Source: Candidatus Neptunichlamydia sp. (GTDB lineage Bacteria; Chlamydiota; Chlamydiia; Chlamydiales; Simkaniaceae). From it: a DNA stretch of 64,000 nucleotides. The position numbers were made by a program, and so were the translations under genes. Every line of letters begins with the position of its first letter. Position 1 is the stretch's first letter. The stretch spans positions 928,001 to 992,000 of the forward strand of contig OZ247587.1 of NCBI GenBank assembly GCA_965233865.1, written 5' to 3'. Positions 2,684 through 26,943 of the stretch are shown one piece after another. Below the pieces are notes generated by a model that saw only the letters and a list, made by a program, of their open reading frames with translations, did not search any database and was not told the origin of the DNA.

Positions 2684-2718
2684 GAACCACAGCTGCAAAA
2701 TTTAAACTTAAAACACTA

Positions 2719-3550
2719 TATAGCTAAAATATTTCGTTTTAGTTATATTTTTTTGAATGACGTATTCATTAGATTTTAGAAAAAAGGTACTGTTGATCCG
2801 AAGCACAGAAAATTTAAGTTTTTCCAAGACAGCAAAACGTTTTGGTGTAAGTGTAAATAGCATATTTCTTTGGTCTAAGAGGCTAGAGGCAAAGCGCACT
2901 AAAAATAGACCTGCAATAAAGATTGAAAGAGATCGCTTGATGGAGCGATATCAAAAAATACCCTGATGCCTTCAACTATGAACGAGCATATCGTCTCAAT
3001 GTAAGCCCTTCAGGTGTTCGTTGTGCCATGAAGCGGCTAAGAATTAGCTATAAAAAAAACACTTAACCATCCCAAGGCTTGTAAAAAGAAGAGATCTCTC
3101 TTCAGAGAAAAGATTTCAAGGTATGAATGCTTGGGAAAACCGATTGTATACATCGATGAAAGTGGGTTTGCCCATGATATGCCCCGAACGCATGGTTGCT
3201 CAAAAATAGGGGCGTTACTTGGAACAAACCTTCTTACTCTTGCACTGTTTGATTGTAATATTAATACAGATGCCTTTAGCAGTTGGGCAGAGCAAGACTT
3301 GATGCCGAAACTTCCTTCTGAAAGCGTTTTGGTTATGGATAATGCATCGTTTCATAAAAGCAAATCTATGCAAGAAAAGATCGAAGCTGCAGGCCACATC
3401 TTGGAATATTCCCCCCCATATTCCCCAGATTTAAATCCTATTGAGCATAAATGGGCACAAGCAAAATCTAAACGAAGAAAATATCAATGTGGAATTGATG
3501 AACTTTTTAAGGAATATTTCCTATAACTAAATTATATCAACTTAGCTATA
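2719..3550 (+). mobile_element. IS630-family element, degraded (832 bp)
   Basis: 29-bp imperfect terminal IRs: TATAGCTAA...TTTAGTTATA at 2719-2747 and its complement at 3522-3550, with TA ends. HTH ORF MTYSLDFRKK and DDE ORF (IDESGF, MDNASFH, PYSPDLNPIE). A8 tract at 3052-3059 at the ORF junction; extra frameshift near 2945. Confidence 0.93.
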
Positions 3551-3660
3551 TGCAGTCCATTCAGTATCAACCTAAGTTTTGTAAATAAAAAATTAAAAAA
3601 GAAAAAGGTTATTGATGATATGCTTTGTGCAAAGAATTCTAACTCGAAAGTTTAGAAAGC

Positions 3661-12322: not shown

Positions 12323-13057
12323 TTATGAGCCCTTAGCTCCAACTTGAGACTCCCAATCCTTTAGGTACTCAAGAAGTTCTTTCTTCTCAGGCTGCGAGCG
12401 AAACAATTCTAAAGCTTCATCACTGCTACTAAGATGAGCAAGCTTTGCTAAGAGATGGAGGTGCCGTTTGTCATCACAGCCAAAAAGGAAAAAGAGAGTG
12501 TGGACAGGAGCTTCGTCTAAGGCACCCCAATCGATCGGATCCTTTGGGAAAACAATTACAACCACGTCTGTTGGTCCTTTCAACAAAAAATCTCGTGTGT
12601 GAGGAACAGCAATCCCATTATTCAAGGCTGTAGGCATCAACTTTTCTCGATCGAGCAGAAGATCAGACATAACCGAAGGATCCATTCCCAATTCTCCCGA
12701 AACACGATCCATAGTTTCTCGAATAATCGCGTCTTTTTTTGTAGACTTTAGATCTGTGAAAACCCCGCCTTTATGCACTGCACGATACAGGCTAAACTGT
12801 TGCATTCCCTTTTTGCCATCTTGTTCTTCATTCTTTTCTTTTTTGGGAGGGAAAATTTGTTCTTCTGTGGAAGGAAGGAAGTTTCCTGTCTCTTTTTGAA
12901 GACGACAGCTAAGCATCCAGTTTTCTATTTCAATGCGACTGAATCGGTATTGGTGATGAAGACGATAAGCAGGGATTTTTCCTTCTGCAAGCCACCGTCG
13001 AATGGTTGTTTCGGAAACATTTAATAACTCTGCTACATCTTTAATCTTTAGATCCAT
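12323..13057 (-). CDS. ptsN: HTH-fused PTS IIA(Ntr)-like protein
   Basis: N-terminal excisionase-like HTH (DVAELLNVSETTIRRW) plus EIIA domain with GIAVPH. Confidence 0.9.
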   Translation of the reverse strand: MDLKIKDVAELLNVSETTIRRWLAEGKIPAYRLHHQYRFSRIEIENWMLSCRLQKETGNFLPSTEEQIFPPKKEKNEEQDGKKGMQQFSLYRAVHKGGVFTDLKSTKKDAIIRETMDRVSGELGMDPSVMSDLLLDREKLMPTALNNGIAVPHTRDFLLKGPTDVVVIVFPKDPIDWGALDEAPVHTLFFLFGCDDKRHLHLLAKLAHLSSSDEALELFRSQPEKKELLEYLKDWESQVGAKGS

Positions 13058-13226
13058 CTCACACCCTGGCTTACCACCTTTAACTCTATGATGACAAACC
13101 TATATTAATTTTGACTTTCTTGCAACATTTCCGCCACGAATTCTTTCCGCTGCAAGCAGCAAGAGTCTAAACATAAGGCGGGTTATTAAAATGGCAAAAA
13201 ATGATTAAGAATGAGTAACTTTAAGA

Positions 13227-13679
13227 CTATAAACCCTCAAACAGGGCGAGAACTTCTTCTTTTGTCCTAGAGTTGATCAAATTTTTTCTCCGGTCTTCAT
13301 CTTTAATCGCTGCTGTTAAAAGAGAAAGAATATTTAGGTACTCTGTCTGCCGATTAGCAGGCCCTCCAATCAAAAAGATGAGCCGGACAGGAGGCGTACT
13401 TTCTGTATCCCATTTAATCCCTTCCTTGGATTTTAGAAGACCCACAGCTAAAAAGAAACGGTTAAATGTGGGAAGTTTTGCATGAGGAATAGCAACTCCC
13501 ATTCCAATTCCAGTCGATACAATTTTCTCTCTTTTGTAGATTGCTTCGCGAAATTCTACTTTATCACCGAGATCACCTACATCCGCAAGAGTTTCTACCA
13601 TTTGATCTAGCGCCTTGTCGCGACTTTCTGCTTCTAAAAAGCAGACTACTCCCTCTTGGATAAATTCTGAAAGAGTCAC
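13227..13679 (-). CDS. ptsN: PTS IIA(Ntr)-like protein
   Basis: STGIGMGVAIPH motif; GTG start at 13679 after AGGAG. Confidence 0.9.
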   Translation of the reverse strand: MTLSEFIQEGVVCFLEAESRDKALDQMVETLADVGDLGDKVEFREAIYKREKIVSTGIGMGVAIPHAKLPTFNRFFLAVGLLKSKEGIKWDTESTPPVRLIFLIGGPANRQTEYLNILSLLTAAIKDEDRRKNLINSRTKEEVLALFEGL

Positions 13680-13704
13680 ATTTTCTCCTTTCTTAAAGAG
13701 ATGG

Positions 13705-14148
13705 TTAATGCGTTCCAGTATGGCCAAAACCGCCTTCCCCTCTTCCTGTCATTCTTAGCTTGTCTTTTTCCCTGTAGTATGCCTGAAAAACTGGTGCAAA
13801 AACTAGTTGTGCTATTCGCATTTTCGGTGTGACTATAAAAGGATTCCTGCCGTGGTTGATTAAAATCACCCCAACTTCGCCGCGATAATCAGAATCAATT
13901 GTACCTGGGGTGTTTAAGACAGTAATACTATGTTTTAGCGCTAGTCCGCTTCGAGGACGGACCTGAATTTCAAATCCCTTTGGTATTTCTAAACGGATCC
14001 CTGTGCGAACAAGCTTGCTCTCCCCAGGAGCTATGACGAGCTCCTCCTGGACCAGAGCACGGACATCCGCCCCCGCTGCCTCTTCAGATCCGTAGATGGG
14101 GAGCTCTGCTCCCTCTTCTAATTTTATGGGGATATCATGTTTTTTCAT
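13705..14148 (-). CDS. dut: dUTP diphosphatase
   Basis: [18 protein letters not shown] and [10 protein letters not shown] motifs. Confidence 0.97.
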
Positions 14149-15107
14149 GGCTTGCTAACTTTAATCGTGTTTTTTTTCCGCTCTTTCTGTGAAAGTGCGA
14201 TAAGATCATCAAATTTTTCTCGCTCTACTTTCTTAGCTCTCTTTTCAGGAAGTTTTTGATTCCCTGTTAAGAACCCAATAAAAAAAACGAGTTTTTCTTT
14301 GAGTTCGCTCCGCTTAACGATACAGTCTATCATTCCCTTTTCTAGAAGAAATTCAGATTTTTGGGCTGCATCGGGAAGCTTCTGGCGAATGGTTTGCTCC
14401 ACAACCCGTGGTCCTGCAAACCCAATTAAAGCATTTGGCTCTGCAATCATAATGTCTCCAAGAGACGCAAATGATGCAGTCACTCCACCTGTTGTGGGAT
14501 TAGCCAAGACAGAGATATAGGGAATTTCAGCGTTGTGAAGCCTTGCAAGTGCTGCAGAAGTTTTTGCCATCTGCATCAGAGAGTAAATAGACTCTTGCAT
14601 CCGTGCTCCTCCAGATGAGGAAACAAGAACAACTGGAATACAATTCATTAATGCGTGTTCAATTAAGAGTGTAATTCTCTCCCCTACGACAGACCCCATT
14701 GATCCCCCCATAAATCCAAAGTCCAAAACCCCAAGGGCAATTTTATTCCCCCCCATTTCGCAAGTTCCAGTCAGAATCGCTTCAGTTCGGCCCATCTTCT
14801 TCTGAGCTCTTTCTAGGCGCTGAATGTAGGGTTCGGAATCAACAAAGTTTAAGGGGTCTTTTGGGTGAATTTCGCTAAAGAGCTCTTCAAAAGTCCCTTC
14901 ATCGGCAAGAAGATCGGTGCGCTGTATTGCTGAGAGACGGTAATGATGTTCACATTTCGGACAGCAGTTATGATTCGATTGAAGTTCATTAGCATGGACC
15001 ATCTCTTCACATTTCGTGCATTTGATCCAACCACTAAATCCGTCTTTTTTCGTCGACTCTACTTGAACCATCTGTCGGCGACGTGTAAAAAGATTTAAAA
15101 AATTCAT
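14145..15107 (-). CDS. accD: Acetyl-CoA carboxylase carboxyltransferase beta subunit
   Basis: CxxC...CPKC zinc finger, [16 protein letters not shown] and PTTGGV. Confidence 0.97.
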
Positions 15108-15179
15108 ATCAAGCCATCTTGATTAAGTATTTACCAAAAGGTTACCAAACCGGTCAAAAGAACACAACCTTGATCATTC

Positions 15180-16436
15180 CTAAGATTGCAATTTAATTTT
15201 TAAAATACTGCGTGTAATTGCTCCTATCGCCGTCAGCTTAATTTCTTTGGGTACCACTGTAAAAGCTTCTGAAAAAGCTTCAACCGTTGAAGGACTTGTA
15301 AAAATAATTTCGTCAAAACTTTCTAAATCAGGTTTGACACTTGGGATTTTTTTCTTTGTATCATAAATAGACACTTTTTGATGGCGCGCTCTCCGGAGCA
15401 TCAAGGAGGTCGAAAGCGCAGAGCGTGCCCTTGAAGATTGTGGCAAAAGAACATAGGCATCATCCAAATCTTCCATTGCCAAGAGATGAATCATTCCTTC
15501 TTGGGTCTCTTCCACTGCCACCTCATCAACTTTCACCCCTCTCTCTTCTAGAGCCTTAGTCGTCACTTTCCCTACTGCAAAAATTTTTTTTCCCTGAAAT
15601 TTTACCTTGTAATACTTCATGCAGTCGCAAAAAATCCGCGCTCCATTTTTACTTGTAAGGATCACATGGGTATACTCAGAAAAGTCGGTCATTGCTGTTT
15701 GTATTTCAAATCCTTGAAAATCACGTGGAATAATTTCAATAAGAGGAAGGTGCACCATCCCCTTTTTCCCTTCTGTTCCTAAATAAAGAACTCTCTTCTT
15801 TTTTCGGGAGTCTAAACTTTTAAACACTTTTTCCATCTCAAAGTCCCCATTGCGCGCAACCACAGCAAGTTTCCCTTGAAGCTGCGCCCCTTTTCCAGGA
15901 AGGAGCACTCGGTTTCGACTTGTCAATTCCAAACGGATTAGAGCGGCTTCTGCAACAACAAGAGCATCGACTTCTCCCAGATCCAGCATCTTCAATCGCA
16001 GGTCAACGGGCCCTCGCAACTCTCTGCAAAGAAAATCAGGGCGCAGCCCTTTAACGACCTTATCGCGGCGAAAAGATGAAGATCCAATTACAGCTCCTCT
16101 CTTCAGAGTTTCCAGACAATCTCCTTCTCGCATCACTAAGCTGTCTCTTGAGTCGACTCCCCGCGTCAAAGCAATAAGTTTGAGCCCCTCTGGAAGTGGA
16201 TCTGGAAGATCTTTTGCTGAATGAATCCCCACATCGTATTTCCCCTCTAAGACCCTTTCATCTATTTCTCTCGTGAAAAAATCCGTCTTGTCCATTGGAC
16301 CTAGCTGTGAAGCAAGATCGCGATCCCCCATAGTTTCAACCCATCCACACTCATACTCTCTCCTGAGTCCTTTCATAATTTCTTCCACTTGTCTCTTCGA
16401 AAGCTTTGATCCTCGTGCTCCCACTTTTATTTTCAT
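15180..16436 (-). CDS. hemC: Fused hydroxymethylbilane synthase (truncated) / uroporphyrinogen-III synthase (HemC-HemD)
   Basis: HemC motifs RGSKLS, HSAKDLP and GSSSFRR, then HemD motifs LTSKNG, AVGKVT, FTSPSTV and AIGAIT. Confidence 0.88.
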   Translation of the reverse strand: MKIKVGARGSKLSKRQVEEIMKGLRREYECGWVETMGDRDLASQLGPMDKTDFFTREIDERVLEGKYDVGIHSAKDLPDPLPEGLKLIALTRGVDSRDSLVMREGDCLETLKRGAVIGSSSFRRDKVVKGLRPDFLCRELRGPVDLRLKMLDLGEVDALVVAEAALIRLELTSRNRVLLPGKGAQLQGKLAVVARNGDFEMEKVFKSLDSRKKKRVLYLGTEGKKGMVHLPLIEIIPRDFQGFEIQTAMTDFSEYTHVILTSKNGARIFCDCMKYYKVKFQGKKIFAVGKVTTKALEERGVKVDEVAVEETQEGMIHLLAMEDLDDAYVLLPQSSRARSALSTSLMLRRARHQKVSIYDTKKKIPSVKPDLESFDEIIFTSPSTVEAFSEAFTVVPKEIKLTAIGAITRSILKIKLQS

Positions 16437-16554
16437 CAATAAATAATCCTCCAAAAGACTCCCAAAATCCTGAGCATAAACTTTTTTCTTTCACACCACA
16501 AGAGTAACTTGTTAAGAACTTATGAGGAATGTCGTTGATCGGAAAATTTTGTGA

Positions 16555-17925
16555 TTAACCCAACAAAGTCTTAATGGCTTCTTCAACGCGTGTGACGCCT
16601 TGAAGTATAATTTTTTCAGGCAGTTTCTTGTTAAGGCCCTTGAGATTTTTAGAACTGAGGATGCACCGCTTAAATCCCATGTTAATGGCTTCTTTAATAC
16701 GACTTTCAATGCGAGGAATGCTTCGCACTTCGCCGCCAAGCCCCACTTCTCCCATCACAACTGTGTCCGAGGGAATATGCTTGTTGCAATAGCAGGAGGC
16801 TATGGAAAGGATTGTTCCAAGATCAATCGCTGGCTCGGTAATTTTCATCCCACCAGCAATAGAAACAAAAACATCAAGTGCATGAAGCTGGTACCCCATC
16901 CTTTTTTCAAGAACGGCGAGGAGGAGGGTCAGCCGTTTGGGGTCAAGGCCTGTGGAGCGCCGAGTGGAGGTTGCAAAAGAACTCGGTGCAACAAGAGCCT
17001 GTACCTCAATTAACAAAGATCGGGTCCCTTCAATCGTTGGAATGATGACAGATCCTGGAGTGCCTGTCATTCTCTCTTCTAAAAATGTTACTGAAGGGTT
17101 AAGAATCTCAACTAGCCCCTTTTCATTCATCTGGAAAAGGGCTACATCATCTGTCGGTCCAAAACGATTTTTAACCGACCGCATCAGGCGATATCCATGT
17201 TGACGATCTCCTTCAAACTCGAGAACAGTATCGACAATATGCTCAAGAACGCGTGGCCCTGCAATGTCACCACTTTTGGTTACATGTCCTATGAGAAACG
17301 TTGTGATCCCACTCCCCTTAGCAAGATGCATACACTCCATTGCGATCTCGCGCACTTGCGTGACAGAACCAGGCGCGGAGGGAAGCTCACTTTTGTAAAC
17401 AATCTGAACGGAGTCAACAATCAAGACATCGGGATGAATCTTTTCGATTTGTGCACGAATTTGAGAAAAAATTGTTTCGCTGTAGAGATAAATCTTATCA
17501 CTCTTAATGCCGAGTCTTTTAGCTCTAAGAGAAGTCTGTTCTACTGACTCTTCACCACAAATATATAGGACTGTTAGCCCCTGGTCAGCGAGACGTTTGG
17601 AAAGTTGGAGGAGCATTGTAGATTTTCCGATCCCTGGCTCACCTCCGAGCAAGTTAAGGGACCCTGAAACAATCCCCCCTCCCATTAAACGATCAAATTC
17701 TCGGTATTCTGTATAGATACGCTTAAAATTTGAGGCATCAACTTCTTCAATTAATACGGGTTTAGTCGTCCGAGAAACCTTTGCTTCAAACCGTCCGACC
17801 TTTTCACTGATTTCAAGTTCTTCAGCAAAAGAATCCCAGCTCTTGCAAATATTGCAACTTCCTGTCCATTTGAATTGCTTATTCCCGCATTCATTGCACA
17901 CCCAAACCGACTTCTGCTTGACCAT
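16555..17925 (-). CDS. radA: DNA repair protein RadA/Sms
   Basis: C4 zinc finger, GEPGIGKS, KNRFG and Lon-like C-terminus. Confidence 0.97.
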   Translation of the reverse strand: MVKQKSVWVCNECGNKQFKWTGSCNICKSWDSFAEELEISEKVGRFEAKVSRTTKPVLIEEVDASNFKRIYTEYREFDRLMGGGIVSGSLNLLGGEPGIGKSTMLLQLSKRLADQGLTVLYICGEESVEQTSLRAKRLGIKSDKIYLYSETIFSQIRAQIEKIHPDVLIVDSVQIVYKSELPSAPGSVTQVREIAMECMHLAKGSGITTFLIGHVTKSGDIAGPRVLEHIVDTVLEFEGDRQHGYRLMRSVKNRFGPTDDVALFQMNEKGLVEILNPSVTFLEERMTGTPGSVIIPTIEGTRSLLIEVQALVAPSSFATSTRRSTGLDPKRLTLLLAVLEKRMGYQLHALDVFVSIAGGMKITEPAIDLGTILSIASCYCNKHIPSDTVVMGEVGLGGEVRSIPRIESRIKEAINMGFKRCILSSKNLKGLNKKLPEKIILQGVTRVEEAIKTLLG

Positions 17926-18633
17926 TTATAACCCTAAGTTTTTGATTGCGTTTTCTGCGGCATTTTGCTCTGCCTCTTTCTTGGAAGATCCTTTTCCTTG
18001 ACCAAGCTCTCTATTGTCGAGATGCGCTTTAATAAAAAAGGTCTTGAGATGATCAGGCCCTTCTTCTTTGAGCACTTCATAATCTGGGGTTTTTTGATGA
18101 CTTTTCTGACAATAATCCTGAAGCTCAGCCTTCCAGTTTCGATGGGGCTTCTCAATGATAGAAAGGACATTCTCTCTAAAGTGATCAAAGAAAAACGAGC
18201 GAGCTGCTTCAACCCCCCCGTCGAGATAAAGTGCGCCAATGATTGCTTCAAAAAGATCCGCAAGAATCGTTCCACGACCTTTCCCTTCATTCATGGATTC
18301 CCCTTTTCCAACCATGAGAAATTTCTCTAAATCAATTTTCTGAAGATACAGGGTGCAGGCAGGAGCCTCGACCATTCTAGAACGGAGGTAAGAAAGCTCT
18401 CCTTCAGGGCGGTCTGGAAGGTGGTTGTAAAGAAAATCACTAACAATCAACCCAAGAATAGTGTCACCTAAAAATTCTAATCGCTCATTATGCCCCTCAA
18501 CAACATCGCGATTTTCATTGGTAAACGAGCGGTGAATAAACGCGAGTTCAATTAAAGACTTTTCTTTAAAAATGTAGTTGATTTGCGCTTCAATAAGAGG
18601 AACGCCTTTTCTCAAATGGTCATATGTATTCAT
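17926..18633 (-). CDS. rnc: Ribonuclease III
   Basis: NERLEFLGD signature and C-terminal dsRBD. Confidence 0.97.
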   Translation of the reverse strand: MNTYDHLRKGVPLIEAQINYIFKEKSLIELAFIHRSFTNENRDVVEGHNERLEFLGDTILGLIVSDFLYNHLPDRPEGELSYLRSRMVEAPACTLYLQKIDLEKFLMVGKGESMNEGKGRGTILADLFEAIIGALYLDGGVEAARSFFFDHFRENVLSIIEKPHRNWKAELQDYCQKSHQKTPDYEVLKEEGPDHLKTFFIKAHLDNRELGQGKGSSKKEAEQNAAENAIKNLGL

Positions 18634-19583: not shown

Positions 19584-20471
19584 CTATATATCGTAAAATG
19601 CTTTGGCATTTTCATAGAACAGCTTGCGTTGAACTTCCGGCGCATAGCGAGAAAATGCGGTACGAAAGATTTCTATAAGCTTTCCGTAGGTTAGAAATAA
19701 GGAATCTGGAGGAATATTGCTTCCAAAAAAGCACCGATCTTCTCCGAAAGCTTCGATACCTGCATGGAGAAACCTCTCAATATTCTCTTGATCATGGGAT
19801 TTAAATATAAGTCCAATTCCACTGAGCTTCAGATGAACATTCAGATTCTCCGCGAGAAGCTTGATGTCCCTCTTCCAAGCTTCAAAACCATTGTCTGTGA
19901 TATCACGGGGCCACCCCAGATGATCTAAGACAAAGGTCACATTAGGGGTCGACTTAACAAGCTTCGCCGCATCTGGGATTTGATGGCCAAATAGAGAAAT
20001 ATCAAAGGTAAGAATCTGCTTCGATAGGGATTGAAGACCTTTTTGAAAATGGGGTTCACTCATGAGATCTGGATCAGAAGATCCTGCTTCATGAAAAAGG
20101 ATCTGGCGCACGCCACGGACGTTAGGAAAATGGCAATGATCTTTTAACACGTTTTCAATATCAGGATCTCTAAGGTCCGCTTGAAACACAATAACATTTG
20201 GAAACCCATGGTTATCGGCAATTTTTTGAAGCCATTCTGTTTCATAAAGCGACTTCTTAAAAACAGGATTCGCTTCTAGGTGCACACACTTTGTGACATG
20301 GTAGGGCTTAACCAAGCTCTCATAATCGGTAATCAAAAAGTTCTTGCACAGCTTATTGCCTTTTCCGATAACCTCTTCAAAGTGCCCCTCTTTTTCTGTA
20401 AGCCAGGGGTATTCACCGTCATCTAGGTCCCATAGATGCATATGCCCATCGATAATTTCGTCTGTATACAT
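19584..20471 (-). CDS. Amidohydrolase_2 family protein (sugar-lactonase-like)
   Basis: IIDGHMHLW, VRGVRQ, VLDHLGWP, KLSG, FGSNIP and ENAKAFY motifs. Confidence 0.88.
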   Translation of the reverse strand: MYTDEIIDGHMHLWDLDDGEYPWLTEKEGHFEEVIGKGNKLCKNFLITDYESLVKPYHVTKCVHLEANPVFKKSLYETEWLQKIADNHGFPNVIVFQADLRDPDIENVLKDHCHFPNVRGVRQILFHEAGSSDPDLMSEPHFQKGLQSLSKQILTFDISLFGHQIPDAAKLVKSTPNVTFVLDHLGWPRDITDNGFEAWKRDIKLLAENLNVHLKLSGIGLIFKSHDQENIERFLHAGIEAFGEDRCFFGSNIPPDSLFLTYGKLIEIFRTAFSRYAPEVQRKLFYENAKAFYDI

Positions 20472-20556
20472 TGTTGATGCCTTTGTGAAAAATCCTGTCC
20501 TAAAATTCACATTACTGGTTTAATGAATTTTTTTGCACGTGCGTACTAATTTTTGA

Positions 20557-20656: not shown

Positions 20657-23600
20657 ATGATAAAATACGTGATGAAAAGCAGAACTGTAACACTCTTCCT
20701 CTACTACATATTTTTATGTTTTTCTTTATCCACCGCTTATGCTGCAAAAGGTCCAATCTCACACCCTCAAGCAGATCTCTCACCAGAAAAGGGTCTAATA
20801 CCTGATGCTTCCTCAGGACCAGGATATACGATTAACTTCGATAACGTTCCAGTTCTAGAAGTCGTCAAGTTTATCAGCAAAATTGGGAAGGTTAACTTCG
20901 TCTATGATGAAACAGCCTTAAACTTCAATGTTACAATCGCTTCAGAAGAGCCTACTCCTCTCGTTCATGTAATGGCGGCATTTATTCAGGTCCTTAGAAT
21001 CAATGGTCTAGACCTGATTGAGCAAGGGAACACTCTGGTGATTTCCAAAGGAGCGGGCATTAGGCAGATTGCAACAGTCGTCTCCAAAGAAGTCCCCCTT
21101 ACTGGGGATTATATCCCGCCGATTATGACCCGTGTATTTGATGTGAAAAATGCTAACCCCGATACGTTAGCAGGAATCATTCGACCTCTTCTCTCTTCAT
21201 CTGCAATCATAGAAGTGTCTGAGGCGACCCGTCACATTATCGTGACTGACATCACTCAGAACATAGAAGAAGTGCATAAGCTCTTTTACACTCTAGATGT
21301 TCCCAGGTCTGCTTTGAGCCTTGACTCATTTTCTTGCCATAACAGCTCTCCTGAAGAGCTAATCGCTCTTGCAAACCAAATCATGATCCCTATTTCTGAA
21401 GGGAATCCCTTAATATTTGTTCCTCAAAACCAAACACGCACGATCTTTATAGTTTCAACGCCCTTTCTTATCGAACAGTCGATCATGATCTTAGAAGATC
21501 TTGATACCCCTCCCTCTCTATCTAGAGGAATCCCTGGGCCGCTCACTGCAAACAACATTTTAATCTACCACATTAAATACAAGCCTGCTGATGCCTTGAT
21601 GCAAGGTGTCAAAGGGGTTGAAGGAAATCTTCACCAGCTAGGTCCTTCTTCTCAAAATTTAGTCGGTGCCTTAGGCTCCATGAAGTTTGTGAAACAAAGT
21701 CACTCTCTGTTTTTTGTTGGAGATACTCAGTCCCTTGATGAAGTCAAAACCATCTTGGATAGCTTGGATGTTCCCTATAGCGAGCAGGAACTCGAATATG
21801 TTCGAGGGGGGTTCTACATCTACAAAATTAAATATAATGATGAACAAGAAATTGCCAGCTCTCTTGACAAGCTTGTTAAAAACTTAAAAAATTCTGATCA
21901 TCCAGATACCGATCTTATCAGCACTATTCAATCAATGAAGTATATCAAGGAGAACGACTCTTTGATGTTCACCGGAGATCAACGGTCCATTAACCGTCTA
22001 AAAGAGATTTTGACAACGTTTGATGTACCTCAACATCAGATTTCGAAGATCCCCATGAGTAACCACTTCTTCATCTACAAGCCCACAAATGAGACTGCAG
22101 AAGACTTGTTAACTCAGGTAAAAAACACCTCTAAAAATCTTAAGAATTCTAATTTTACCGATGCAGCATTTCTGAAAGCTCTAAGCTCTATAACCCTTTC
22201 TGATGAAGGCAAATCCGTCACGTTTACTGGAGACCGACAATCCCTTGATCGAATTAAGGCTTTAGTCGCAGGGATGGATCAACCTAAAGGACCGGCTTCT
22301 GCTGAAACAAAAAATTTTATCTATCAGATCCAATTTGTAAATCCCGAATACATTGAAGGAGGGCTTCAAAGTATAGCAGAAACGCTCCCTTCTGATAACC
22401 CTTTAACTCTGACAATCGATAACATGAAATATGTCAAGCAGTCAAACTCGATTGTTTTTAGAGGGTCAGAAAACACGATTAGCGAGATCAAAACAATCTT
22501 GCCAACGCTTGATAATCAGCAAATTTCTCAAAATCAAGCAGCTGGAAAGTCTACGTACTTTGTCTACAAATTGCAAAATGCTTCCGGTAATCAAGTCATT
22601 AAAGAACTCAAGCAAACAGCTCAATCCATCAAGGGTTCTACTACCCAAGATAAAGAAGTTATACAATCAATCAACAGTATTGATTGTATTGAGTCAACAA
22701 ATTCTCTAGTTATTACAGGCCCTCCCTCTGTTATTGATCGCATTAGAGGCATGATTGAAAAATATGATACTCATCGTGCAGAGGCGACTTCGTTCTATGT
22801 CTATAAACCAACAGGTATCACTGCTGAAAAATTCCAAAAACGTGCTCTCAGCGCTGCAAAAGAAATGGATGCTGCTGGACTTGATAATAGTAGCTTTATT
22901 GAAGCTATGGGCTCCGCGAAAATTGTATCGAATGGTTCTGCTGTAATGTTTACCGGTACTCCTCAAAGCATCGAAAAACTCAAAGAGATGATTACATCTT
23001 TTGACTCCTATAAAGCAGATCAGCCAAAAACTTCAGAATTTTTTATGTACAAACCTAAGGTGATTTCGGCAGAACAACTTAGAAATGACGTCTTAAAAGC
23101 TGCTAAACAGCTTGAGAAGTCAGGACTCCAAGATCCTGAGTTAATTAGCGCCATGGACTCTGCCAAAATCTCCTCTAGTGGAGATCGTGTTGTCTTTACG
23201 GGAACACCTGAAGCTATTTCAAAAATAAAAATGATGGCTGAACAGTATGATAATCAAGAGGAACAAACCAAAGCTTCTCAGTATTTTATTTTCAAACCGC
23301 AGCATCAAACTCCTGAAGAGATTATCAAACAATCACAACATGCTGCCGATCAAATGGAAGATAAGGGTCTCACTGACAGGAGCCTGATTACAGCTCTTAG
23401 CTCTGCAACAATTGTTTCCCAGGGAACTGGTGTTCTATACACTGGAACCAAGGATGCCATAATGCAAATTGAGGACCTTGTTCCAACCTTTGACAATACA
23501 AAGGCTACCTCCCCCGATGCAAACCAATTCTTTGTGTATACTCCTGTTCATATTACCGCCGATCAGCTAAGGCAACACTCACGTCGTGTTGCAGATGACA

Positions 23601-25480
23601 TGGAAGGTGCTGGGTTTAGCGATAAAAGCTTGATTAGCACCCTGCAAAACACCCGCCTTGCTTCTAACAGAAAAGGTGTTTTATTTACGGGAACTTCAGA
23701 GTCAATTGCCAAAGTTCAACAATTACTCCCCTCTTTAGATAGTCCAACGGATGATCAGCCCAAACAAGTTGGGAAGACCACTTTCATGATCTACAAGATC
23801 AAGTATCTAACAGGGCAAACCTTAATGGGATACTTAAGAAATATGGCCTCAGACTTGCAACGCGCTGGGTCTACTCAAGATGACTTAATGACAACTTTGA
23901 ACAATATGCGCTATGTTCAGGATACTAACTCGATTATCTTTACTGGAACCCCTCATGCTATTCAAGAATCTCTGGCCCTAGCTCAGAAATTTGATATTCC
24001 TTCGCTTGCTCAAGAAGCTCCCATTCGTGCCCCTACTGACTATCTGATTTACAAACCTAAGTTCGTTCCTGGAGAAGAATTAATTCGTGTACTCCACGAT
24101 TTTGAGCAGAATTTAAGAACATCTGGCGTCACTGATAAAGAACTCTTTGATGTGATCAATAACCTCAAGTGGATGGAAAGGACCTCTTCAATTCTAGTCT
24201 CAGGCGATGAAAAGGAGACAAAAAAAGTTTTAGAGCTTCTAGAACGTTTTGATATTCCTGGACCTGGAATTCCTGAGGGTGCACCTGGAATTGAAACTGT
24301 CTCTGATATGAGCTTCCTTATTTACAAGTTACAGTATCATTCAGGAGAAGAAATCCAGTCAGCAATTAAGCTTATCGGAGTAGACCTTGGAAAATCAAAA
24401 TCAAATAGTGATTTAGCCCAAGCAATTCGAACACTTCAATGGATCGAGGTCACCAATTCCCTTGTTGCCACAGGGCAAGCAGATTCCTTAGGGAAACTCA
24501 AGGAGTTGATCAAGAGCATTGACATCCCTCTTAAGCAAGTCTTTGTAGAAATTTTAGTGATTGAAACGCAAAACGCCGACACTCTAGAATTTGGTCTTCA
24601 CTGGGGGTCTCAAGGTGTCTACCGCAATAAGTTCTCTTATGGCACATATGGCAATCCTATAAATACATCGAACAACAAAGATCCACTCGTGTCCTTTAAC
24701 GAATCCGTACAAAGAATTACTGGATCAGCAACTCCGAGTGGAACCATGATTCCAGTCGTATCAGGTGGAGATCTTGGAGTAATTGGGGATATTATCCTCC
24801 ATAAAGGACAGACCTATTTTGCACTAGGTTCTTTGATCAATGCACTCAAGAATGATGGTGATTCTACGATTGTAATGAACCAGAAAATCATCACTCAGGA
24901 CAATAAAATGTCTACCATCTTCTCAGGGCAGAACATTCCCTATACTGGATCCCTTGTCACACAAACGGGTGCGAATCAAATCACAACAGCCAACTTGGAA
25001 TATCGCGATGTGGGAATCAGCCTAAGTATTACTCCTGTTGTTGGGAATAACGACATTATCACACTCATGATTGAGGAAGACATTTCCGAACAAATCAATA
25101 CCGATCAAGGAAGTAGCGTAAACTCTGATCAGGTTCAAGGAATTACAACAAGTAAAAACAGCACGAAGGTTGTTGTCAGTGTTCCAGACAAAAGCTTCCT
25201 TGTCTTAAGTGGGTCGATTCAGGACTCTAAAACACGCACCAAAACAAGCATTCCCTGCCTTGGAGGTCTTCCTCTGATTGGTGCGGCCTTTTCCGATGTC
25301 AGTCTGGATAGCTCGGTTGCAAACATTGTCTTCTTTGTGAAGCCGCAAATTATCAAATCCTTCGATGTCTACTCGGAGATTACCGAAAGACAGGAAGATA
25401 TTTTCCGCGGTTACTCAGGTGACTCTGAAGACTTTGATATTGGTGTCGAACTTGTCAAAACCCCAGATGACACTTATTAG
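20657..25480 (+). CDS. Giant secretin of the chlamydial CdsC/SctC type with 12 tandem periplasmic repeats
   Basis: Signal peptide, N0 (GYTINFDNV...LNFNVTI), N1 and N2 domains, 12 repeats, then secretin core (KQVFVEILVIE, EYRDVGISLSITP, IPCLGGLPLIGAAF, VFFVKPQII). Confidence 0.92.
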   Translation: MIKYVMKSRTVTLFLYYIFLCFSLSTAYAAKGPISHPQADLSPEKGLIPDASSGPGYTINFDNVPVLEVVKFISKIGKVNFVYDETALNFNVTIASEEPTPLVHVMAAFIQVLRINGLDLIEQGNTLVISKGAGIRQIATVVSKEVPLTGDYIPPIMTRVFDVKNANPDTLAGIIRPLLSSSAIIEVSEATRHIIVTDITQNIEEVHKLFYTLDVPRSALSLDSFSCHNSSPEELIALANQIMIPISEGNPLIFVPQNQTRTIFIVSTPFLIEQSIMILEDLDTPPSLSRGIPGPLTANNILIYHIKYKPADALMQGVKGVEGNLHQLGPSSQNLVGALGSMKFVKQSHSLFFVGDTQSLDEVKTILDSLDVPYSEQELEYVRGGFYIYKIKYNDEQEIASSLDKLVKNLKNSDHPDTDLISTIQSMKYIKENDSLMFTGDQRSINRLKEILTTFDVPQHQISKIPMSNHFFIYKPTNETAEDLLTQVKNTSKNLKNSNFTDAAFLKALSSITLSDEGKSVTFTGDRQSLDRIKALVAGMDQPKGPASAETKNFIYQIQFVNPEYIEGGLQSIAETLPSDNPLTLTIDNMKYVKQSNSIVFRGSENTISEIKTILPTLDNQQISQNQAAGKSTYFVYKLQNASGNQVIKELKQTAQSIKGSTTQDKEVIQSINSIDCIESTNSLVITGPPSVIDRIRGMIEKYDTHRAEATSFYVYKPTGITAEKFQKRALSAAKEMDAAGLDNSSFIEAMGSAKIVSNGSAVMFTGTPQSIEKLKEMITSFDSYKADQPKTSEFFMYKPKVISAEQLRNDVLKAAKQLEKSGLQDPELISAMDSAKISSSGDRVVFTGTPEAISKIKMMAEQYDNQEEQTKASQYFIFKPQHQTPEEIIKQSQHAADQMEDKGLTDRSLITALSSATIVSQGTGVLYTGTKDAIMQIEDLVPTFDNTKATSPDANQFFVYTPVHITADQLRQHSRRVADDMEGAGFSDKSLISTLQNTRLASNRKGVLFTGTSESIAKVQQLLPSLDSPTDDQPKQVGKTTFMIYKIKYLTGQTLMGYLRNMASDLQRAGSTQDDLMTTLNNMRYVQDTNSIIFTGTPHAIQESLALAQKFDIPSLAQEAPIRAPTDYLIYKPKFVPGEELIRVLHDFEQNLRTSGVTDKELFDVINNLKWMERTSSILVSGDEKETKKVLELLERFDIPGPGIPEGAPGIETVSDMSFLIYKLQYHSGEEIQSAIKLIGVDLGKSKSNSDLAQAIRTLQWIEVTNSLVATGQADSLGKLKELIKSIDIPLKQVFVEILVIETQNADTLEFGLHWGSQGVYRNKFSYGTYGNPINTSNNKDPLVSFNESVQRITGSATPSGTMIPVVSGGDLGVIGDIILHKGQTYFALGSLINALKNDGDSTIVMNQKIITQDNKMSTIFSGQNIPYTGSLVTQTGANQITTANLEYRDVGISLSITPVVGNNDIITLMIEEDISEQINTDQGSSVNSDQVQGITTSKNSTKVVVSVPDKSFLVLSGSIQDSKTRTKTSIPCLGGLPLIGAAFSDVSLDSSVANIVFFVKPQIIKSFDVYSEITERQEDIFRGYSGDSEDFDIGVELVKTPDDTY
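21557..24525 (+). repeat. 12 tandem protein-level repeats (~82 aa) in the secretin
   Basis: Repeat starts: IYHIKY, IYKIKY, IYKPTN, IYQIQF, VYKLQN, VYKPTG, MYKPKV, IFKPQH, VYTPVH, IYKIKY, IYKPKF, IYKLQY. Each ends with a F/YTG-like strand and a helix closing in L/F/Y/M/I-D. Confidence 0.9.
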
Positions 25481-25567
25481 TTTCAACCTGAGATTTGTAA
25501 AGCACTAGCCTTAAGAGGGCGTCAAACAGCTGGACTTTTCGTTCGATGAATGCTAGGCTGTTTCCCA

Positions 25568-26521
25568 ATGAAGTATGCAAAATTAATCCTCACCGTTTTT
25601 TTATTGCTCGCCGTGACAGGTTGCTACAAGGTCCCTGATAAAATTGAGCCACAGGTGAATTTCTCGGTGCAAGACAAGTACTTAAAGCAATTACCTCCCG
25701 CTTTCCCCCCACTAGACTCAAGTGAGAAAGGAGAATCGTGGGGACAGGAGTATCTGATTGCTCAAAAATTTGCAGAACATTTGGACCTTTACCGCGCAAT
25801 TACGACATTTAAACGTGCGGAGTTTTTATTACCAGCGGGGAAGCTTAACCGTCTTGAAGAGATTCAGTACCAGATCCTCTTGAGCTACTATTTAGGAAAG
25901 CGATATGAGCAAGTAACGCAAGAGTTTATCCACTCATCTCTATACTCAGCGACAGAGAGTTTTCCTGCTTACCATGATCTTCTGATCATAATGTATGAAA
26001 GTTACCTGGAAGTGGGAGAAGAGCAAAAAGCGGATTACGTCTTTAAAGTGATAGAACACCGTTTTCCTGAAGCAGCAAAAAGGCTCAAAGTTTCAACGGC
26101 CCTGATTGAAGGGAATCTGGACACACTCCAAACGATTCAGAAGGAAGGCCCTTCAAAGGAATACATCACACAATTTCTAAACACTTACGAAGCAAAAAAA
26201 AAGTCTGTTAAAAAAGCACAAACGCTCAATGCCCTCCTGCCAGGTGCAGGGTTCTTGTATATCGGGCAAAAACAATCAGCATTTACCTCTTTTCTCTTAA
26301 ATGGCCTCTTTATCTGGGCGTCGGTTCACTTTTACACTAAAGGAAACTATGCAGCCGGAGCAATCTTCACAAGCTTTGAAACAGGCTGGTATTTTGGAGG
26401 GATCTATGGAGCTGGAGAAAGTGCTAAGTTTTACAATGAACGTCTTTACGAAGAGAATGTCTGCCCCATCCTTAACAAACATAGCTCCTTTCCTGTCTTA
26501 ATGCTGAAGTTTGGGTTCTAA
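25568..26521 (+). CDS. Putative lipoprotein with TPR-like helices and a C-terminal TM2-like membrane region
   Basis: Lipobox LAVTGC; LLPGAGFLYIGQ motif followed by hydrophobic segments. Confidence 0.75.
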   Translation: MKYAKLILTVFLLLAVTGCYKVPDKIEPQVNFSVQDKYLKQLPPAFPPLDSSEKGESWGQEYLIAQKFAEHLDLYRAITTFKRAEFLLPAGKLNRLEEIQYQILLSYYLGKRYEQVTQEFIHSSLYSATESFPAYHDLLIIMYESYLEVGEEQKADYVFKVIEHRFPEAAKRLKVSTALIEGNLDTLQTIQKEGPSKEYITQFLNTYEAKKKSVKKAQTLNALLPGAGFLYIGQKQSAFTSFLLNGLFIWASVHFYTKGNYAAGAIFTSFETGWYFGGIYGAGESAKFYNERLYEENVCPILNKHSSFPVLMLKFGF

Positions 26522-26943
26522 TGAAAACACTCCTATTACTCATTTTGTCCATTCCTCTATTTGCTGAAGTGGGGTTTGTGAAACCATGGGGAAGAGATTC
26601 TGAACTGGTCCCTAGCACTAGTCTCATTCCTCCCCTTCCAGAACAGTCAGGGCTCATGACTAAACTGAGCGAATATATTATCCTTTTTCATCAAAATATC
26701 ATCTCCCCTGTTGATGGCCCCCGTAGTCACTTCCGTCCCACAAGCTCACGCTATATGCTTCTGGCAATGAGAAGAAATGGCTTTATCAAAGGGTACATTA
26801 TGGGATGTGACCGCCTCCTACGAGAAAATAAGGAGGAGTGGGTCTATCGCACAGTAACAATTAATGGAGAGACTTATAAGTGGGACCCAACTTTTTCATC
26901 ATCAAAAAGAAGCGGCTCCTCCAAGAAGGCTACTTCATCATGA
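26521..26943 (+). CDS. YidD-like membrane protein insertion efficiency factor domain protein
   Basis: ISPVDGPRSHFRPTSSRY...GCDRLLR matches the YidD pattern with Cys-to-Ser changes; has an N-terminal signal-like segment. Confidence 0.75.
   Translation: MKTLLLLILSIPLFAEVGFVKPWGRDSELVPSTSLIPPLPEQSGLMTKLSEYIILFHQNIISPVDGPRSHFRPTSSRYMLLAMRRNGFIKGYIMGCDRLLRENKEEWVYRTVTINGETYKWDPTFSSSKRSGSSKKATSS

Follow-up and report, generated by a model that had tools for sequence, protein, structure and literature searches.

Which machine does a secretin serve when its gene stands apart from every secretion cluster and its periplasmic part has been multiplied many times over? This question is raised by a 64,000-nucleotide stretch of the genome of Candidatus Neptunichlamydia sp., a member of the Simkaniaceae (assembly GCA_965233865.1, contig OZ247587.1, positions 928,001 to 992,000 of the forward strand; hereafter the window), which encodes a 1607-aa secretin, here P0001, with twelve tandem domains in front of its core. 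A first-pass annotation made from the letters of the window had called the gene an orphan and proposed an undescribed system, either an alternative injectisome ring or a stand-alone channel. Gene order in relatives and phylogeny of the core show instead that it is the positional and phylogenetic orthologue of cdsC (sctC), the secretin gene of the chlamydial type III secretion system (T3SS). We consider it likely that P0001 is the outer-membrane secretin of the single injectisome of this Simkaniaceae-type chlamydia, and that an inversion has isolated its gene in this genome.

Identity and genomic position of the gene

The gene occupies positions 20657..25480 of the window, stop codon included, on the forward strand (genome coordinates 948657-953480); it starts with ATG and its frame is intact. 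In the translation, a Sec-type signal peptide can be recognized by eye at residues 1-29 (20657..20743), with cleavage following AYA (residues 27-29). The N0 domain (residues 59-126; 20831..21034) matches PF21305, type_II_gspD_N0, at 31.9 bits against a cut-off of 27 and aligns to the N0 of XcpQ. The N1-N2 region, at residues about 135-294 (21059..21538), is delimited by alignment of residues 135-218 to XcpQ N1 and by partial matches to a repeat hidden Markov model (HMM), and probably includes N2; the solved N0-N1 of XcpQ/GspD aligns to residues 56-218 as a whole (E 1e-5). Twelve tandem N3-like secretin N-domains (residues 295-1296; 21539..24544) then lead into the secretin core (residues 1297-1607; 24545..25477), in which PF00263 matches residues 1396-1567; all of these features lie on the forward strand. 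In Pfam, Secretin_N scores 232.6 bits over 7 separately significant stretches and Secretin scores 108.9 bits, all above cut-offs. By its N0, Secretin_N and PF00263 matches and its by-eye signal peptide, P0001 can be placed in the secretin superfamily, and the layout that the first-pass annotation had described (N0, an N1/N2 region, twelve tandem repeats and an intact core in 1607 aa) was confirmed by the list of open reading frames (ORFs), Pfam and the HMM of the protein's own units.

That annotation was also right that no T2SS (type II secretion system), T3SS or pilus genes flank the gene: a Pfam scan found none among the 21 neighbouring ORFs. The genome's own T3SS cluster lies at 1559077-1569700, with the order cdsD ... 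sctN, a yscO-like gene, a 539-aa ORF, a 228-aa ORF, sctQ and a pkn5-like gene, the named genes being identified by Pfam. There is one SctV and one SctJ in the genome, so that the rest of an injectisome is encoded (SctV, SctJ, CdsD, SctN, YscO-like, SctQ and Pkn5-like proteins).

The word orphan does not survive comparison with related genomes. In all five other genomes of the genus the long secretin comes straight after cdsQ-pkn5, 1.6-2.7 kb downstream. An opposite-strand amidohydrolase gene stands between pkn5 and cdsC at four of these five loci; at the same-genus locus L085 the amidohydrolase was not matched, and pkn5 ends about 2 kb from the start of the giant gene. Across the phylum, 40 of 47 long-secretin loci have the secretin at the end of a sctN-yscO-sctP-sctQ-pkn5 cluster, a position that it does not hold in this genome: a pkn5- or cdsQ-like gene adjoins the long secretin at 17 of 21 multi-repeat loci and at 23 of 26 loci whose secretin has a single unit, and one of the loci without such a neighbour is cut by a contig end.

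The junctions in our genome show how the two parts were separated. Homology with relatives ends at 1559078, the end of pkn5, and restarts at 947578 (window 19578), just outside the divergent amidohydrolase gene (Amidohydro_2 by Pfam; 19584..20510, reverse strand), which marks the edge of the segment that has stayed next to cdsC. The inversion measures ~611 kb and is seen in this genome alone among the 6 genomes of the genus compared. The breakpoint midpoint (1.253 Mb) falls at the cumulative GC-skew minimum (1.26 Mb), so that we read the rearrangement as one inversion, symmetric about the origin presumed there, which cut the secretin off from its cluster. It is this event that makes the gene look isolated.

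Phylogeny of the core agrees with gene order. We searched the phylum with the last unit plus core of P0001 as query; 120 Chlamydiota genomes were scored and one more was not scorable, and all 120 contained a match. Among the 22 genomes (1.0-1.3 Mb) of one genus, g9, the single match is a frame of 913-954 aa. At the g9 loci that were fetched, this frame is preceded by cdsN, yscO-like, cdsQ-like and pkn5-like genes, and its N0 lies at about residues 255-335. CdsC of C. trachomatis is described as a protein of 921 aa with a unique 250-residue N-terminal domain (Nans et al., PMC4682100); the g9 frame is CdsC as published.

We then placed 63 CdsC-family cores and 6 GspD-type outgroup cores in a tree (IQ-TREE quick search, LG+G4, supports from the SH-like approximate likelihood ratio test, SH-aLRT, only, no bootstrap). 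The CdsC family was split from the GspD-type outgroup at 100% SH-aLRT, and one clade (97%) held all multi-unit proteins together with all copies of a short paralogue discussed below. Core scores were similarly separated, at 149 bits or more for CdsC-family proteins of 60 loci and 15-39 bits for secretins of GspD operons from five families. These results show that the core of P0001 groups with the CdsC/SctC family of Chlamydiota, as the CdsC likeness noted in the first-pass annotation had suggested, and apart from GspD-type proteins.

The tandem repeat array

An HMM built from P0001's own units finds 12 tandem units across residues 295-1296, each with an E value between 6e-28 and 3e-34, and gives partial matches at residues 173-222 in the N1 region and 257-289 in the N2 region. 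The repeats measure ~85 aa, comprising a unit of about 74 aa and linkers of 5-17 aa. We modelled units 7-8 with AlphaFold2 (AF2), using an alignment of 131 di-repeats from P0001 and 12 related proteins. The mean predicted local distance difference test score (pLDDT) was 89.6, and each unit adopted a beta-alpha-(alpha)-beta-beta-alpha arrangement. A Foldseek search of the PDB with this di-repeat returned 34 matches at E 0.001 or better, and among the matches listed all were secretin N-domains (ExeD, XcpQ N0-N2, GspD, InvG, PulD and EpsD). Together with Pfam, these predictions identify the units as secretin N-domains, the fold that the first-pass annotation had expected of them.

Pairwise protein identity among the 12 units ranges from 11 to 45% (mean 26%), and their DNA identity averages 53% and reaches 59% at most. 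Units so diverged at both levels speak for an array of old standing and against a product of misassembly. In comparisons with three same-genus orthologues, the ratio of nonsynonymous to synonymous substitution rates (dN/dS) was 0.075-0.133 in the array and 0.065-0.085 in the core, a pattern that shows purifying selection on the array. The suggestion of an old, selected expansion thus held up.

Unit number varies widely among relatives. The own-unit HMM counted 4-16 units in 22 multi-unit proteins extracted from genomes, and 7-29 units in 119 database homologues, where the mode is 10 and twenty proteins have 12. Twelve units is therefore an ordinary, mid-range number for the clade. The largest array, in P0058 (2810 aa), has 29 units, and four other database homologues have 18-21. 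The database protein of Simkania negevensis (P0030) has 1764 aa, and in a Simkania sp. protein of 1772 aa (L010) we counted 14 units. Within the genus the number is 8, 12 or 13; towards the ends of the array (R1-2 and R10-12) each unit has its one-to-one counterpart in relatives, and gains or losses of units sit mid-array. The first-pass proposal had hinged in part on such repeat numbers not being documented as normal for the family; they are indeed usual among the homologues, but we found no paper that documents them.

Proteins outside the multi-unit clade, and the short paralogues, have one unit-HMM match each. These include three proteins of the Chlamydiaceae-like family f4 (L045-L047, 908-945 aa), each matched once by the unit HMM and credited by Pfam with 3 Secretin_N stretches. 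The single N3-like unit that the first-pass annotation had given for chlamydial CdsC is thus what all three f4 proteins tested contain.

Other CdsC proteins are enlarged in other places. In family f6, 184-583 aa precede N0. The CdsC giants of f16 (L035 and L036, 2357-2516 aa) have 1600-1770 aa before N0, which is another route to size, and those of f8 (L037 and L038, 1763-1934 aa) have about 1200 aa between N0/N1 and a single N3-type unit; to this ~1200-aa stretch the repeat HMM gives faint, partial matches only.

Which secretin serves the injectisome

Several observations weigh against the assignment of P0001 to the injectisome. In this genome its gene lies 606 kb from every T3SS gene. The canonical SctC model of NCBIfam, TIGR02516, gives 88.2 bits and fails its cut-off of 238.45, while the GspD equivalog TIGR02517 is passed at 362.9 bits (cut-off 351.35). 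The genome has another CdsC-like gene, whose 564-aa product is of canonical SctC size; either in place of the long form or alongside it, this product may serve the injectisome. AF2 did not confidently predict the mutual orientation of neighbouring units (predicted template modelling score, pTM, 0.55 for the di-repeat). Finally, a fully stacked tube of 15 rings would, on our estimate, exceed the 34 nm given for the basal body of C. trachomatis (PMC4682100).

The second gene offers the strongest alternative. It encodes N0, one N3-like unit and a core (genome G000:C1:549252-550946; L005:8252-9946), and over 390 residues its product shares 50% identity with the long form. Copies are present in families f1, f9, f11, f19, f20 and f23. 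If the short protein were the working injectisome secretin wherever both forms occur, the long form would be free for another task, be it as a conduit of another kind across the envelope, as a stage-specific ring or as a stand-alone channel, which comes near the first-pass idea. The layout of the short form, its size, that of canonical SctC or phage pIV, and its intactness at all 14 two-copy loci examined are compatible with such a role. An ordinary periplasm would hardly fit a 15-ring tube, and in this genome neither copy is T3SS-linked.

The surroundings and descent of the short form nevertheless argue against it. At none of 14 short loci did we find cdsQ, cdsN or yscO-like genes nearby, the nearest thing being one weak kinase match, and no conserved secretion genes stand beside it in 13 relatives. 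Its neighbours there include an S9-like peptidase gene in 6 of the 13 and an RluA-type gene in 4 of the 13; the PspC-domain gene found near it in our genome is not conserved in them. In the tree the 14 short paralogues are monophyletic (100% SH-aLRT) and nested within the multi-unit proteins, so that the short form is the derived copy. A normal cdsC within the T3SS cluster, for which the first-pass annotation had allowed, is not there: the second CdsC-like gene is this short derived paralogue, never T3SS-linked, and it is the short 564-aa gene that is the real orphan.

Family f7 provides a further contrast. A single CdsC-type match was found in 13 of 15 f7 genomes and in one f22 genome. In all six f7 genomes searched with the secretin model there is no short copy; each has only two secretin-domain genes, a long one (1178-1593 aa) and one of 730-772 aa. 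The G110 copy of the latter, the only one placed in the tree, falls with the GspD-type proteins. SctV is kept in all five f7 genomes tested. With SctV present and no other CdsC-type gene, the long form is the sole CdsC-type candidate for the T3SS in f7. It is also the long form that keeps the ancestral order pkn5-cdsC-lipoprotein-yidD. We therefore regard a transfer of the injectisome role to the short paralogue as unlikely, and P0001 as the better candidate.

It is far less probable that P0001 serves type II secretion as a GspD, the name that the NCBIfam equivalog would give it. The nearest solved structures do belong to GspD proteins: among solved proteins T2SS GspD matches the core best (E 7e-30), followed by PilQ, f1 pIV and InvG, the last ranking 19th of 20 solved matches. 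A failed SctC model and a passed GspD model are, however, what would be expected of a chlamydial T3SS secretin, since this protein is T2SS-like: according to Abby and Rocha (PMC3459982), the secretin of every 'Chlamy' T3SS is T2SS-like, having been recruited independently from the T2SS lineage. Of the three secretin genes in our genome (1.83 Mb, one contig), of 781, 564 and 1607 aa, it is the 781-aa one that heads a gspD-E-F-G operon elsewhere in the genome. That protein and four GspD-type secretins of other families are those scoring 15-39 bits against the core and forming the outgroup of the tree. No gspE, gspF or gspG lies near the long gene here or in relatives, where T3SS genes adjoin it.

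That the array might be a functionless stretch of repeats, in decay or wrongly assembled, for which its unusual length and nothing else would speak, is hardly credible given the intact frame, the orthologues of 1607-1609 aa in three other genomes, units too diverged (at most 59% DNA identity) for assembly collapse or expansion, and a dN/dS near that of the core.

Conserved partners, estimated conduit length and comparison with known secretins

Two genes follow the secretin on the same strand. The first (25550..26521, forward strand) starts 70 nt downstream and encodes P0121, a lipoprotein-like protein of 323 aa with a lipobox-like LAVTGC motif, whose Cys is kept in at least 90% of 36 homologues. 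AF2 predicts an all-alpha structure (pLDDT 94.5) with a body resembling tetratricopeptide repeats (TPR) and a long C-terminal hydrophobic helical hairpin. The second gene (26521..26943, forward strand; 140 aa) is yidD-like (PF01809; TIGR00278 at 60.6 bits, above cut-off), and its start overlaps the stop of the 323-aa ORF. A P0121 homologue lies downstream of a CdsC-family secretin, on the same strand, at all 21 multi-repeat loci and at least 19 of 26 single-unit loci, and the order of lipoprotein gene then yidD-like gene recurs in 36 loci. No P0121 homologue was found after the short paralogue at 13 loci, or in three f4 genomes searched with a single-sequence query.

TPR lipoprotein pilotins (PilF/PilW/Tgl) are known for type IV pilus secretins. 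P0121 resembles them in being lipoprotein-like, all-helical, TPR-like and encoded beside a secretin, but differs in its conserved C-terminal hydrophobic hairpin, in the yidD gene that follows, and in having no specific sequence or fold match to any pilotin. In Foldseek against the PDB it matched generic TPR proteins only (E 0.018 or worse), a match to the BamD model was weak (E 1e-4, below cut-off), and Pfam gave nothing at E up to 5. Generic TPR folds and a sub-threshold BamD match do not justify naming it a pilotin or BamD, and we rejected both identities. That P0121 might act in secretin assembly is a guess, prompted by its gene position and the precedent of the TPR pilotins.

Around the secretin gene, scans found 18 promoter and 9 terminator sites, where shuffled sequence would give 18.5 and 7.9. 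A search of public sequencing runs listed no RNA holder and three near-complete DNA holders, all from one study. At an f6 locus (L028; G023:C7:54566-73534), two tandem CdsC genes, for 955 and 956 aa, lie downstream of pkn5, with a lipoprotein-gene homologue between the two copies and yidD after the second. Elsewhere in the window, a repeated element of about 850-890 bp, at about 2716-3551, occurs in at least 30 other places in the genome and shows 70-80% identity to the same-genus sequence L084:3714-4561; it is possibly an insertion sequence or other mobile repeat. The genes at 12323-18633 (two PTS EIIA-domain genes, dut, accD, a hemC/hemD fusion, a radA-like gene and rnc) stand in an order that we take to match C. 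trachomatis CT290-CT299.

Within the T3SS cluster itself, the 539-aa and 228-aa ORFs lie between the yscO-like gene and sctQ (genome 1561903-1564337; L079:9903-12337, minus strand) and have no Pfam match. In Chlamydiaceae-like genomes a single ORF of 277-289 aa takes this place; the extra ORF, of 195-228 aa, is also found in f1, f19 and f23 loci. When the SctP-position ORF was defined, post hoc, as the largest ORF between the yscO-like and cdsQ-like genes, its length correlated with secretin length (Spearman 0.74, n=27, uncorrected for phylogeny) and with unit number (rho 0.57). An automatic pick gave rho 0.30, because it chose spurious small ORFs. Control genes gave -0.14 (CdsQ), -0.17 (YscO-like), +0.43 (Pkn5) and -0.61 (SctN) against secretin length, the last value arising in part from truncated ORFs. 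We treat the apparent growth of the SctP-position ORF with secretin length as a lead only.

How might such a protein work in an injectisome? P0001 retains from chlamydial CdsC both the N0-N1-N2 head and a core of the T2SS-like type, lacks the pre-N0 extension of Chlamydiaceae, and has 12 ring-building N3-like domains between N2 and core instead. By homology, the units of 12-15 protomers would stack as successive periplasmic rings below the core, as N1-N3 do in solved secretins and N0-N5 in Thermus PilQ, and the N0-N1 end would dock on the inner-membrane rings of CdsD/CdsJ. Fifteen N-domains might then form a conduit of roughly 45-65 nm, a rough estimate that scales 3-4.5 nm per ring from PilQ, which would be far longer than in any characterized secretin. 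The linkers of 5-17 aa and the strong constraint on the units favour a structured tube over a loose tether. Basal-body length would be determined by how many middle units are present.

A wider proposal is distinctly more tentative. The secretin of this clade's injectisomes could be a length-tunable tube, of ~15 rings here and up to ~30 in relatives, several times as many as in the largest secretin characterized, which has six. Its middle units, perhaps with the SctP-position protein, could adapt basal-body length to a periplasm that is very wide or varies in width; another possibility is that the array is a compressible spring at host contact. The derived short paralogue could in turn provide a second, short outer-membrane ring for another stage or machine.

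In public databases such sequences are named 'secretin N-terminal domain-containing protein', 'type III secretion protein C' or 'GspD/PulD', and a full-text literature search of partial coverage found neither multi-unit CdsC/SctC nor its variation in copy number described, nor any account of the short paralogue. The identity of the gene is ordinary; its architecture, if stacked, is well outside what has been characterized. Of the basal bodies imaged, that of the chlamydial injectisome is described as the longest and the most flexible; it measures 34 nm in C. trachomatis and contracts on host contact (PMC4682100). If the units really stack, the clade with its 4-29 units would be a natural series of secretins of graded length, in which one could ask how ring number matches envelope width, how needle and inner rod pass through the conduit and what fixes needle length. 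The gene also corrects an annotation trap, as it passes the GspD equivalog threshold and looks like an orphan, yet is to all appearances a T3SS secretin. It further points to two uncharacterized players, the phylum-wide lipoprotein and yidD pair behind cdsC and the short CdsC paralogue without known partners.

Set beside known secretins, P0001 has its nearest solved sequences among GspD/XcpQ/PulD, both for the core (E 7e-30) and for N0-N1 (E 1e-5), and its units find their nearest folds there too. Those proteins, however, have N0-N3 only and are encoded with gspC-M genes, and the true GspD of this genome is another gene. CdsC of C. trachomatis, which we take to be CT674, belongs to the same family by core similarity: it shares about 35% identity over the last unit and core, falls in the same clade, has the same plan of N0, N-domain and T2SS-like core, and lies after cdsQ-pkn5, as do the genes of P0001's relatives. 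It differs in the lipoprotein gene, which stands downstream of P0001 and was not found by the single-sequence query in the three f4 genomes. It differs also in the ~250-residue unique domain described before its N0 (PMC4682100), where the N0 of P0001 comes right after the signal peptide, and in its 921 aa (PMC4682100) with one N3-type unit against 12. An architectural parallel is PilQ, the type IV pilus and DNA-uptake secretin of Thermus thermophilus, a protein of 757 aa with six rings, N0-N5 (PMC5745081, PMC4463427). Its channel is about 35 nm long, and it has been called one of the largest characterized secretins (PMC4463427, PMC5745081). In both proteins the periplasmic part is multiplied into beta-alpha-beta-beta-alpha domains, which in PilQ are reported to form stacked rings spanning an unusually wide periplasm (PMC5745081, PMC4463427). 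P0001 differs from it in the T3SS context and in its about 15 N-domains within 1607 aa, which by analogy would stack in the same way.

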